Source: a virus. Taken from it: a DNA stretch of 64,000 nt. The stretch is taken from IMG/VR virus record IMGVR_UViG_3300028581_000012. One strand, given 5' to 3'. The notes under the pieces were generated by a model. The model did not search any database. It saw only the letters and a program-made list of their open reading frames with translations, and was not told the origin of the DNA. The position numbers were made by a program, and so were the translations under genes. How positions within the stretch are numbered: the first letter of the stretch is position 1; every line of letters begins with the position of its first letter. Below, piece after piece: positions 34,928 to 46,780 of the stretch.

Positions 34928-37792
34928 ATGAGTGAAGATTTTGTGTCAAAAACACCAGAGTCAAAGGCCCTTTTAATATTAGAAGATTATGAAGGGTCAA
35001 ATAACTATATCCTAAATTTAAAACACAAAAAGGAAAATAGTAAATCTTTTACCCCAACAAGAAGTCAATCTGAATACATAATAAATTATAGGAACACAAA
35101 TCCAAAGGTTGCAAAAAAATGGGTTAAGTTAGACTCATATTTTGGTAAAAAACTTATGGAGGACAAAATGTATACAAAAGAACCTTCTGAAATTTATGTT
35201 GAAAAGTTATTAGTAGAAAAAGATAAAGCTTTTCATATTTGGGGTAAGATTTTTAGTGGTGAAACATTACACGATTTTTGGATACCAAAATCTGCAATCA
35301 TTAAAGACAACGAAGTAAAAAATATTGTTATTGATTATAGCAAGTATTACGTTAGACCACCAATGGAACATCAAAAGGTTGCTATTGAAAAATTGGTTGG
35401 TAATAAAAAGTTTATTTTAGCTGACGATATGGGACTTGCAAAAACGGGTTCGTCAGTAATCGCCGCGTTAGAATCTGATATTAAAAAAATACTAATAATA
35501 TGTCCCGCTTCGCTTAAAATAAATTGGCAAAGAGAGATTAATATATATAGTGACCGTAATGTTTATATTGCTGAAGGGAAGAAGTTTTCAACGAATCACG
35601 ACATTGTGATAATAAATTACGACATTTTAAAAAACTTTCACGACCCTAAAAATAAAGAAAATTCTGAAATATTAAAATCTAATTTTGACCTTTTAATTGC
35701 TGACGAATGTTTTACTTACGACACTAAAATAACAACAAATAAAGGTGAAATTAAAATTGGTGATATTGTTGAAAAAAATTTAGATGTAGATATTTTGTCT
35801 TATAATCACAACACAAAAAAAACCGAATACAAAAAAATATTTAGAAAATTATTTAAAAAAACAGACACTATACTTCAAATTAAATTACACAACGGAGTAT
35901 TTATAGAGTGTACACCAAATCATAAAATATATGTAAAAGATAAAGGATATGTTAGAGCCGATAAAATTAATACAAACGACTATGTGTTTGAATTGTCAAA
36001 AATTATTAACAAAAAAACAAATAATGAAGAAGAGTCAAACTTGTTCAAAATCTTGCAGCACGACATATCGTTACAAAAAAAATCCACCACAAAAAAAAGA
36101 AATAGAATTAAAACATCAAAAAAAATGTTTACATTGTGGAGAAATAATGAAATTTCAAACACAATCACAAATGAAAAAACAAATTTGTTGTTCAATAAGT
36201 TGCGCAAGCAAAATGAAATGGAAAAAAGAAGAAACAAGACAGAAGTGGAAAAACTCCATGAAAAAACACAATATGTCAGAAAAAATGAAAGAAGTTCACA
36301 GGAAAAATCCAAATATAAGGAAGGAATCGTCGGAAAGAATGAAAAAAAACAACCCAATGTTCAATTTGGAATCATTGGAAAAAATGAAAAAATCTTTGTC
36401 TGGAAAAACTTTTTTATCGAGAGGCGGAAACGGGACATTAACAAAACAACAAAAAAAATTATACAAAGTTTTAAGTCAAGAGTGGGAAATGGAATACACT
36501 ATTTTAACAAAAGATTATATTGGACATCAAAAAAGTTTACCAAATCATTACAATGTAGATATCGCCAATTTGAAACTGATGTTAATTATAGAAATAGATG
36601 GGAAAAGCCACAAACTAAAAAAATGGAAATTTATAGACAAAAGAAAAACAGAAATATTAACTTCATTGGGGTGGACAGTATTAAGATTTTGGAACGAAGA
36701 AATCGACAACAATATAATGGATTGTCTGAAAAAAATACAAGCGTATACGATTTAGAAGTTGTAGATAATCACAATTATTTTGCAAATAATATTTTAGTCA
36801 GTAATTGTCATGTTGTGAGTAACCCACAAGCTCAACGCACTAAAATAATAAATGACATAGCAACATCGATTGAAAGAGTTTGGTTATTAACTGGAACCCC
36901 TATAACCTCAAGACCTATGAATTATTATAACTTATTAAATTTAGTTGATAGTCCTGTGGCTGCGAATTGGATGGCATACGCTAAAAGATATTGTAATGGG
37001 TTTCAATTTAGTGTTGGTAAAAGAAAAGTTTGGAACGTAACAGGGGCATCAAATTTAGAAGAATTAAGAGAAAGAACTCAAACACATATTCTTAGAAGAT
37101 TAAAAGAAGAAGTGTTAGATTTACCTGAAAAAATTATAACTCCTGTTTATTTAAGACTAAAGTCAAAAGATTATGAAGAGTTAATGGGGGAATATTTTGA
37201 TTGGTACGATTCAAGACCTGAAGAGTCTTCATCGTTAACAATTCAGTTTTCAAAGTTAATGAAAGTTAGAAAAGTTATCGCTCAAGAAAAAATAAATAAT
37301 ACAATTGAGTTAGCTGAAAATATTATTGAGCAAGGTAAAAAGGTTATTATTTTTACAAATTTTACAGATACATTAAACATAATTTACAATCATTTTGGAA
37401 AACAAGCGGTCTATCTTGACGGTAGTTGTTCTAAGTTTCATAGACAAAACGCTGTGGATGAATTTCAAACAAACGACAAAATAAGAGTATTTGTTGGAAA
37501 CCTGAAAGCTGCAGGGGTTGGTATTACTTTAACGTCAGCTGAAGCCGTGATAATGAATGATTTATCATTTGTTCCTGCAGAACATTCACAAGCCGAAGAC
37601 AGGTCCCATAGAATAGGACAAAAAAATTCCACATCTGTTTATTATCCACTTTTTGAAAACACTATTGAAGGTGCGATATACGACATACTCAATAGGAAGA
37701 AAAAAATCATAGCAACAGTTATGGGTGACGATATGATGGATGACGCATCGACAATTGAAGAAATGTTAAATATGATTTCCTATAGGAGGTGA
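34928..37792 (+). CDS. SNF2/SWI2 (HARP-like) helicase, intein-containing (954-aa precursor, 588 aa spliced)
   Basis: LADDMGLAKT, IICPASLKINW, DE|CH after splicing, LLTGTP, ILRRLK, AAGVGITL, QAEDRSHRIGQ. Confidence 0.93.
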   Translation: MSEDFVSKTPESKALLILEDYEGSNNYILNLKHKKENSKSFTPTRSQSEYIINYRNTNPKVAKKWVKLDSYFGKKLMEDKMYTKEPSEIYVEKLLVEKDKAFHIWGKIFSGETLHDFWIPKSAIIKDNEVKNIVIDYSKYYVRPPMEHQKVAIEKLVGNKKFILADDMGLAKTGSSVIAALESDIKKILIICPASLKINWQREINIYSDRNVYIAEGKKFSTNHDIVIINYDILKNFHDPKNKENSEILKSNFDLLIADECFTYDTKITTNKGEIKIGDIVEKNLDVDILSYNHNTKKTEYKKIFRKLFKKTDTILQIKLHNGVFIECTPNHKIYVKDKGYVRADKINTNDYVFELSKIINKKTNNEEESNLFKILQHDISLQKKSTTKKRNRIKTSKKMFTLWRNNEISNTITNEKTNLLFNKLRKQNEMEKRRNKTEVEKLHEKTQYVRKNERSSQEKSKYKEGIVGKNEKKQPNVQFGIIGKNEKIFVWKNFFIERRKRDINKTTKKIIQSFKSRVGNGIHYFNKRLYWTSKKFTKSLQCRYRQFETDVNYRNRWEKPQTKKMEIYRQKKNRNINFIGVDSIKILERRNRQQYNGLSEKNTSVYDLEVVDNHNYFANNILVSNCHVVSNPQAQRTKIINDIATSIERVWLLTGTPITSRPMNYYNLLNLVDSPVAANWMAYAKRYCNGFQFSVGKRKVWNVTGASNLEELRERTQTHILRRLKEEVLDLPEKIITPVYLRLKSKDYEELMGEYFDWYDSRPEESSSLTIQFSKLMKVRKVIAQEKINNTIELAENIIEQGKKVIIFTNFTDTLNIIYNHFGKQAVYLDGSCSKFHRQNAVDEFQTNDKIRVFVGNLKAAGVGITLTSAEAVIMNDLSFVPAEHSQAEDRSHRIGQKNSTSVYYPLFENTIEGAIYDILNRKKKIIATVMGDDMMDDASTIEEMLNMISYRR
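35708..36805 (+). mobile_element. Intein (366 aa) inserted in helicase motif II (DE/CH)
   Basis: Block A CFTYDTKITT, block B IECTPNHKIYV, block F VYDLEVVDNHNYFAN, C-terminal ILVSN followed by +1 Cys. Removal restores LIADECH. Confidence 0.95.
35949..36755 (+). CDS. Putative homing endonuclease (Zn-finger repeats + NUMOD3-like + Vsr/DUF559-like), nested in the intein in the +1 frame
   Basis: CLNC...TCSKSC, CLHC...CCSISC, SERMKKNNPM, YNVDIA...LIIEIDGKSH...DKRKTEILTSLGWTVLRFWNEEI. Confidence 0.88.
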   Translation: MLEPIKLIQTTMCLNCQKLLTKKQIMKKSQTCSKSCSTTYRYKKNPPQKKEIELKHQKKCLHCGEIMKFQTQSQMKKQICCSISCASKMKWKKEETRQKWKNSMKKHNMSEKMKEVHRKNPNIRKESSERMKKNNPMFNLESLEKMKKSLSGKTFLSRGGNGTLTKQQKKLYKVLSQEWEMEYTILTKDYIGHQKSLPNHYNVDIANLKLMLIIEIDGKSHKLKKWKFIDKRKTEILTSLGWTVLRFWNEEIDNNIMDCLKKIQAYTI

Positions 37793-37804
37793 TATTTATT
37801 CTAT

Positions 37805-38524
37805 ATGAAATCAAAAATTTTCGAAGGGTACTTAAAAACAATCAATCATATTGAATCATTATTAGAAATTGAATCATCTGAAAAAATCACCTTAATTAGT
37901 GAAATTAAAAAAATCAGTATAGATAAATTACCATATGATTATAATTCTTTAGAAGTTTTTATTGATAGTGAGACTATGAATACTCACTACAACAAACATT
38001 ACAAAGGTTATGTTGATAAGTTAAACAAAGAATTAGAAAAAGTTAAAGGGAAAGATTTAGATTTGGAACAAATAGTTTCAGACATATCAAAGTTTAATAC
38101 TGTTGTTAGAAATAATGGTGGCGGAGCATTTAATCATGCATTATTTTGGAAAATGCTTTCACCAAAAAAACAAAAACTTGAAGACCCAATAAAATCTAAA
38201 ATTGAAAAAACTTTTGGTTCTTTTGAAAAATTTAAAGAAAAGTTTGAAGAAGAGGCAAAATCAAGATTTGGTTCAGGGTGGGTTTGGTTAATATTAACTA
38301 AAACTAATAGACTAAAAATTGTTACAACCGCAAATCAAGATAACCCATTAATGGACAACCAAGAAGTTAGAGGATATCCTCTTTTGGGGTTAGATGTTTG
38401 GGAACATGCGTATTATTTAAAGTATAAAAATCAAAGGGATAAGTACGTTTCAAACTTTTGGAAGGTGGTTAATTGGGGGTTTGTAAATGATTTATATTCG
38501 ACGCAGTCAAAACTTAATGACTAA
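37805..38524 (+). CDS. sodA: Mn/Fe superoxide dismutase (Mn-type signature) with N-terminal extension
   Basis: LPYDYNSLE, THYNKH, NNGGGAFNHALFW, FGSGWVWL, ANQDNP, DVWEHAYY. Confidence 0.95.
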   Translation: MKSKIFEGYLKTINHIESLLEIESSEKITLISEIKKISIDKLPYDYNSLEVFIDSETMNTHYNKHYKGYVDKLNKELEKVKGKDLDLEQIVSDISKFNTVVRNNGGGAFNHALFWKMLSPKKQKLEDPIKSKIEKTFGSFEKFKEKFEEEAKSRFGSGWVWLILTKTNRLKIVTTANQDNPLMDNQEVRGYPLLGLDVWEHAYYLKYKNQRDKYVSNFWKVVNWGFVNDLYSTQSKLND

Positions 38525-46054: not shown

Positions 46055-46780
46055 ATGAAGACCTATAAATATTCTACAAAAGAAAGAGCTGAAAGGGTTG
46101 CAAAAACAATTAATTGTACCGGCTCACACCAACATACTGAAAAAGGTAAGAAAATTTACATGCCGTGTAAGAGCCATGAAATATTTTTGAAAAAGACAAA
46201 AAACACCGAAGGTGAAGTGACCGAACTTGTAGATTATGATGGAACGTGGGAAACTTCTTCAGTTCCAATATTAAATCCTGCAACTACTGGAACTAAAAAT
46301 AATCCAACAATTACCGATAAAATTGTCTTTATGAGTAAAAACCCAAGAGACCCATTATTAAGAGGTTGGTATGGATACTATGGTGAAGGTCACGTTAAAG
46401 AAATTGATATGTCTAAAGCGTTTGGGTTTGAGGATACTAAATTTATGGATGCAGAAGAAACAGAAAAGTTTTATAAAAAAGAACTTAAGTTGAAACCTCA
46501 AAATGCAAAAATAAGAACACTAGACCAAGGTAAAAAGAAAGGTTTGGACAAAAAAACTCCACCTAGTATTAAAAAGAAAAAAGGATTTATTGATAGGGAA
46601 ATATTAAAAGAACTTGAAACCGATGAATTATATGAAGATATGTTGTTCAACAAAGACAAAAAAACGGATGATGGTGTTATTGGGGATTTAATTAAAAAAA
46701 ATGTTAGAGCGTTAAAAAAAATGGCGAGTGATAATAATGTATCCATTCAAGAATTAATTTATATGTTAAAAGATGAATAG
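46055..46780 (+). CDS. Hypothetical protein with N-terminal DUF3721-like Cys/His motif
   Basis: AERVAKTINCTGSHQH...YMPCKSH. Confidence 0.65.
   Translation: MKTYKYSTKERAERVAKTINCTGSHQHTEKGKKIYMPCKSHEIFLKKTKNTEGEVTELVDYDGTWETSSVPILNPATTGTKNNPTITDKIVFMSKNPRDPLLRGWYGYYGEGHVKEIDMSKAFGFEDTKFMDAEETEKFYKKELKLKPQNAKIRTLDQGKKKGLDKKTPPSIKKKKGFIDREILKELETDELYEDMLFNKDKKTDDGVIGDLIKKNVRALKKMASDNNVSIQELIYMLKDE

Follow-up and report, generated by a model that had tools for sequence, protein, structure and literature searches.

A contiguous helicase intein with a Vsr-like putative homing endonuclease gene in its +1 frame

Results

The window, a 64,000-nucleotide stretch of viral DNA, comes from the large, AT-rich genome of a myovirus, which encodes a tail sheath, tail tube, baseplate hub and family B polymerase. 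Near-identical DNA is present in lake-water metagenomes. On the forward strand of the window lies a gene for an SNF2-family helicase (34928..37792; Pfam SNF2-rel_dom and Helicase_C), the product of which is a precursor of 954 residues, predicted to be 588 residues long after splicing. An Fe/Mn superoxide dismutase gene (37805-38524; Pfam, matching locus L256) sits between the helicase gene and a T4 gp13-like neck gene.

The helicase is interrupted at motif II, its Walker B site, by a 366-residue class-1 intein (35708..36805, forward strand) placed between DE and CH. This is the arrangement that the initial annotation had proposed from the DNA letters, and it holds: the intein scores above the curated cut-offs for TIGR01445, TIGR01443 and PF14890, and it has the residues expected of class 1, namely Cys1, the block B TxxH motif (Thr69 and His72), Asp348 and His355 of block F, and a terminal Asn (Ser365-Asn366) followed by Cys at position +1, where Cys, Ser or Thr is expected. 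The penultimate residue is Ser rather than His, as in 13 of 56 family members, the other 43 ending in His-Asn. Removal of the intein (954 − 366 = 588 residues) leaves a protein of the same length as, and collinear with, the intein-free 588-residue relatives (79-92% identity), so that the insertion is precise relative to these homologues.

Between the splicing blocks, the intein reading frame (frame 0) passes through a filler loop of about 243 residues rich in Lys, Asn and Arg (35999..36727, forward strand). The loop is open and bears no sign of protein-level constraint; neither Pfam nor NCBIfam assigns it a domain, endonuclease domains included, in agreement with its earlier description as motif-less. 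In a canonical bifunctional intein, blocks B and F enclose an endonuclease that shares the intein frame. Here, the DUF559 endonuclease is in the +1 frame. Other features at the locus were considered and set aside. An antisense ORF of 125 residues (35980-36357) belongs to no family and is unconserved, and the conservation of frame-0 Met306, a candidate internal start for the C-terminal intein half, is explained by Lys-Trp codons of the nuclease. A search for an intron or structured RNA at the locus gave no credible Rfam match.

Read in the +1 frame of the intein, the same DNA encodes a 268-residue protein (35949..36755, forward strand), a putative homing endonuclease of the Vsr-like (DUF559/EDxHD) type. 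The DUF559 match (E 2e-16) bears out the initial assignment of this ORF, and frame +2 across the same DNA is full of stops. Its TAG lies within the codons of block F, as had been noticed, and does so in seven of seven close homologues. Near the N terminus are two Cys4 clusters (C13/16/32/36 and C60/63/81/85; 35985..36203, forward strand), both invariant in seven homologues, which upholds the earlier reading of paired Cys repeats. They are probably FCS-type zinc fingers for DNA binding, and zf-FCS matches occur in 15 of 90 relatives. Beyond the clusters come a conserved RMxxNNPM helix region, an RGGNG motif and the catalytic domain. A NUMOD3-like label had also been attached to the protein; Pfam gives it no support, with no NUMOD match in the nuclease and one, weak, among the 90 relatives.

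The predicted catalytic residues are Gln168, Asp204, Glu215, Asp217, His221 and Asp230 (36450..36638, forward strand), of which the last five are each kept in 57-58 of 58 family members. Asp204, His221 and Asp230 (57/58 each) have the spacing of D196, H213 and D222 of I-Bth0305I, and supply the Asp-His-Asp of the EDxHD signature. The first Glu of that signature (E170) appears to be replaced by Gln in the window nuclease: the aligned range, which is not a residue-level superposition, points to Gln168, a position with Gln in 46 and Glu in 11 of the 58 members.

A structure model of the C-terminal 144 residues (pLDDT 91.8) predicts a Vsr-like fold. It matches 3HRL (Z 12.8, rmsd 1.4, 84 residues aligned), I-Bth0305I (3R3P; Z 11.3, rmsd 2.3, 88 aligned) and Vsr itself (1CW0; Z 10.4, rmsd 2.1, 96 aligned). 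A full-length model from seven sequences was poor (pLDDT 67), Foldseek gave no match at E < 0.001, and PHROGs gave none for the nuclease.

The two frames are under very different constraint. With the nuclease sequence fixed and the codon usage of the window, a mean of 23.7 stops is expected in frame 0. None is observed. The minimum in 20,000 resampling draws was 7, and the exact probability of no stop is ~1e-15. The initial annotation had pointed to C-ending nuclease codons wherever a T-ending synonym would create a frame-0 stop. Indeed, T-ending codons occupy 0 of 42 such at-risk positions and 53 of 91 harmless ones (58%; Fisher 1e-12), a count that restates the open frame; the weight rests on the comparison with expectation. 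At-risk codons in other window genes are T-ending in 61% of cases, and at such sites 15-30 codons end in T in the split and free-standing relatives. In 45 other window genes, off-frame open stretches reach 99 codons at most.

Substitution patterns, which the earlier proposal had named as a check, agree with it. Nine pairs from the clade were compared over the overlap. The +1 frame gives dN/dS values of 0.12-0.34; frame 0 gives 1.2-2.4 in every pair but the closest, which has 0.75. The pattern is reversed in intein residues 1-80, with a frame-0 dN/dS of 0.12-0.30. Close Vibrio phage pairs behave alike (0.03-0.17 in the +1 frame). We conclude that frame 0 is kept open with no sign of sequence constraint and that the +1 protein is selected. 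In this non-canonical intein, the host frame runs open through an overlapping endonuclease ORF that is under purifying selection of its own.

This layout is common. A profile search returned 160 clusters at E < 1e-30. A single open frame spans both intein halves, and the nuclease is at +1, in 48 of 55 strong viral matches and in 63 of 71 strong matches from bacterial and archaeal assemblies of many phyla, both counts containing some near-duplicates. The host proteins are SNF2 and other SF2 helicases, DnaX-like clamp loaders and terminases, and the insertion point is nearly always at, or just past, the Walker B acidic pair. Eight cultured phage records among those examined have the layout as well (Vibrio phages CP-T1, K391, 1.088.O, 1.194.O, 104E43.1 and 159E43-1b, Pseudomonas MR14 and Corynebacterium phi673); the second ORF is unannotated in every one. 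At L256:3001-3807, in an ENA assembly, the gene caller did the opposite, keeping the nuclease and losing the overlapping part of the helicase.

The other seven viral loci comprise three split inteins, two free-standing nucleases, one locus with a single stop and one with a one-base indel. The split (fractured gene) members L114:2038-2991 and L136:2239-3213 likewise have their nuclease at +1, with 15-25 stops in the host frame. The free-standing members are L143:2306-2935, directly upstream of and overlapping a helicase-like gene, and L145:2333-2932. Two loci are apparently broken, either of which may be an assembly error: L107:2182-3351 has a single TAG in the host frame, and in L128:2093-2982 a one-base indel fuses the N-terminal intein half to the nuclease. 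Minor-capsid (Phage_Mu_F) inteins (L147:1307-3475 and L150-L153) have a distant DUF559 endonuclease in frame. In two quick trees the split and free-standing members fall among contiguous ones. An AU test does not reject a basal split clade (p 0.50), and we therefore claim no direction between split and contiguous forms.

Empty alleles differ from the window at the insertion site. All 76 among the best helicase matches read DEAH, and four more that share the odd motif I of the window read DEAH or DESH (in total, 79 DEAH and one DESH of 80). The proposed target, an empty allele with the joined site GAC GAA/TGT CAT, was not found by exact-pattern search in this phage group, nor was an empty DECH allele found in the clade of the window. 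Because the nearest empty alleles read DEAH, homing here would have to carry the +1 cysteine along.

Compared with the empty allele L009, the window helicase gene is 87-100% identical outside codons 121-300 and 65-82% identical inside. Over codons 251-270, the window gene shares 87-90% identity with intein-bearing alleles and 53-77% with empty ones. The conversion tract, intein included, spans 35648..36835 on the forward strand, reaching ~60 nt upstream and ~30 nt downstream of the intein and taking in the Cys+1 codon. These identities fit homing with co-conversion supplying Cys+1. Cultured Vibrio sister phages carry, at the same helicase site, mini-inteins (L253 of K459 and L254 of K389), an empty DECH allele (L255 of 234P10) and an empty DEAH allele (L251 of 1.285.O); taken together, Vibrio phages hold full, mini and empty DECH, DEAH and DESH alleles.

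How might the nuclease be made? With one exception, the listed members have an ATG a short way ahead of the first Cys cluster, often with a strong Shine-Dalgarno (SD) sequence at 5-9 nt. SD-like pairing of ≤ -5 kcal/mol precedes the nuclease ATG in 54% of members, compared with 16% of control out-of-frame ATGs (p 2e-4, a value that ignores relatedness among members). These predicted ribosome-binding sites point to separate translation of the nuclease. No SD is found at the nuclease ATG of the window or in its clade, which is as expected, since none of the 47 window genes tested has one. ATG 35949 is kept in close homologues and the second Met is not; this conservation could follow from the Tyr-Val codons of the intein frame.

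In the window, a candidate internal phage promoter, the box TATTTATA (35898..35905, forward strand), lies in the codons that immediately precede block B. The nuclease ATG follows 51 nt downstream, and the box may give rise to a separate nuclease transcript. Upstream of window genes, 2.8 kb of sequence contains 8 copies of the box (mean 1.0 and maximum 6 in shuffles), compared with 3 copies in 57 kb of coding sense. Of 12 clade members, 8 match it exactly. It falls within conserved intein codons, which counts against the promoter reading. Sigma-70 promoters were not above shuffles (23 versus 17 ± 4), and a regulatory hairpin of the Dassa/T4 type at the nuclease ATG is unsupported (fold z 0.65). 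Elsewhere in the window, a TATTTAT(A) box, the reverse complement of the T4 late promoter, lies 11-47 nt before many start codons, preceding the genes that start at 46055, 46005, 38551, 37805, 34874, 32839, 28462, 26967 and 24869.

Discussion

The overlap is real and under selection, and the locus is most likely a dual-coding selfish element and a working homing intein. We propose that the helicase mRNA is read in frame 0 to give the 954-residue precursor, from which the splicing halves would excise themselves together with the 243-residue filler loop, releasing the 588-residue helicase. The +1 frame, read from its own ATG (35949), would yield a free endonuclease with zinc fingers and a Vsr-like domain. 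Where hosts initiate by way of SD sequences, the family would provide a ribosome-binding site inside the intein; in the present phage group, which lacks SDs, the internal TATTTATA promoter would probably give a separate nuclease transcript. During co-infection, the nuclease would cleave a helicase allele that has no intein, close to its Walker B codons. The repair that follows would copy the intein with its flanks and, in the clade of the window, convert DEAH into a splicing-competent DECH. In favour of this model we count the frame-specific dN/dS, the stop avoidance, the conserved catalytic residues, the +1 layout found across most of the family, the SD excess, the drop in identity to L009 around the site and the spread over unrelated ATPases. 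The initial suggestion of a junk frame spliced out and a nuclease made separately thus fits the tests of selection, stop avoidance, residues, ribosome-binding sites and conversion tract.

One alternative is that the overlap is an artefact or a product of decay, a once in-frame endonuclease having been shifted by compensating indels or by assembly error. Distant DUF559 relatives are in frame in the minor-capsid inteins, as this would have it. Nevertheless, we give the idea almost no credence. An independent ENA assembly has the same nuclease, with three substitutions and no indels across the intein, so the check for compensating indels came out clean. Moreover, the +1 offset is common to more than 110 loci, and descent from an in-frame ancestor would not explain why the ~24 stops expected in the other frame are all absent. 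Stop avoidance, frame-specific dN/dS and the independent assembly already refute this reading. A metatranscriptome contig pair spans 35833-36429 without indels, which has no bearing on transcription or on the start; the remaining read-derived contigs are fragmentary. It is improbable, too, that the nuclease arises by programmed +1 frameshifting after block B, as a fusion to the N-extein and the N-terminal intein half that may be released by N-terminal cleavage. The nuclease ATG of the window has no SD, and the L128 contig places the N-terminal half in frame with the nuclease. However, that absence is expected in a window where no gene has an SD, the ATG before the first Cys cluster is nearly universal in the listed family members and often well provided with an SD, and neither a conserved slippery run nor a hairpin was seen. 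Internal initiation is favoured.

In a rival account of mobility, the nuclease would recognise DECH alleles only, these being already saturated in the clade, with DEAH resistant and the mosaic flanks left by ordinary recombination. Cys+1 is missing from all 80 close empty alleles, and in Vibrio phages an empty DECH allele (234P10) exists beside DEAH and DESH ones, both of which suit such a history. Yet the short tract common to otherwise divergent intein-bearing alleles centres on the site, and ongoing purifying selection on the nuclease requires targets. We consider saturation unlikely, though much less so than frameshifting or artefact, and prefer homing with co-conversion.

The architecture belongs to a class already published, and the novelty that the initial annotation implied for an out-of-frame intein endonuclease was set too high. 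Gosselin, Arsenault and Gogarten (10.1101/2025.01.02.630785) described contiguous actinobacteriophage inteins with out-of-frame endonucleases, which they called rare: antisense Vsr-like, antisense LAGLIDADG and same-strand, frame-3 endonuclease VII-like enzymes. Those inteins resemble ours in being contiguous, with an open, unstructured in-frame middle and a separate endonuclease ORF, Vsr-like/EDxHD enzymes included. They differ in that their Vsr-like enzymes are antisense and their same-strand enzyme is endonuclease VII-like, whereas ours is same-strand, +1 and Vsr-like; their hosts are a polymerase, minor capsid protein, terminase and thymidylate synthase, whereas our family is common and sits at Walker B sites. 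Phillips, DeSimone and Gogarten (10.64898/2026.09.14.751524, citing Gorbalenya 1998) reported a cyanobacterial dnaX intein with a '+2 ORF' LAGLIDADG enzyme, SD motifs and frame-specific dN/dS. The overlapping out-of-frame endonuclease, the putative internal SD, the selection pattern and the clamp-loader host, found in some members of our family, are shared. The enzyme, reported as LAGLIDADG, is not Vsr-like.

Dassa (2009, PMC2677866) described fractured genes in which split inteins accompany free Vsr-like endonucleases. There, too, the two parts of the intein flank a gene for a Vsr-like enzyme that runs at its 3' end into the C-terminal half and has a phage promoter upstream; L114 and L136/137 of our family have this very layout, with a stop after the N-half and a separate start for the C-half. 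In the window, unlike in that system, frame 0 has no stop and the host frame continues across the whole nuclease gene, which makes the intein a single chain. The intron-encoded I-Bth0305I (Taylor 2011, PMC3239194; PDB 3R3P), an EDxHD enzyme with NUMOD2 repeats, shares with our nuclease an N-terminal DNA-binding part, a C-terminal Vsr-like domain and the catalytic D, H and D; ours differs in its Cys4 fingers and, apparently, in having Gln at the Glu170 position. The ShiLan insertion (Arsenault 2025, PMC11855218) likewise hides an out-of-frame endonuclease inside an open host frame, but the enzyme is HNH and there is no intein splicing domain. That paper mentions the possibility that co-conversion lets an invader supply a +1 residue favourable to splicing.

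The openly accessible literature that we searched held no report of a same-strand, Vsr-like Walker B intein family, and no paper joining CP-T1 with an intein. A bolder reading, which we hold to be less likely than not, is that the family is undescribed and very widespread, one in which a same-strand +1 Vsr-like endonuclease is standard, expression signals are hidden in intein codons, the Walker B site of unrelated ATPases is the target, the +1 Cys comes along by co-conversion and the contiguous form interconverts with split and free-standing ones. If the interconversion is real, the family would be a living intermediate between contiguous and split inteins. Hundreds of inteins that seem 'decayed' or endonuclease-less carry an intact endonuclease missed by annotation, and an architecture called rare in 2025 is common. 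The locus is also a clean natural example of extensive overlap between two genes, where one frame has only to avoid stops. Since full, mini and empty alleles occur in cultured sister Vibrio phages, two open questions become directly testable. The first concerns the routes by which inteins come to associate with endonucleases and by which split inteins form; the second is whether a gene nested inside a contiguous intein is expressed and causes homing.

A second, different intein occurs in the same helicase at motif I (GK|T), in L014:2511-3641, L032, L037, L039, L048, L056 and L057. It has an in-frame endonuclease, LAGLIDADG-like by eye, and an unusual first residue (Phe). Three of these loci, L032, L056 and L057, are empty at motif II with an altered downstream flank (DEAHVIANPKAL). 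The window itself has GLAKTGSS in place of GLGKTTST at motif I (35432-35470), as do the intein-bearing L001/L003 and the empty alleles L164, L166, L167 and L169; we speculate that such alleles might be immune to the motif I intein.
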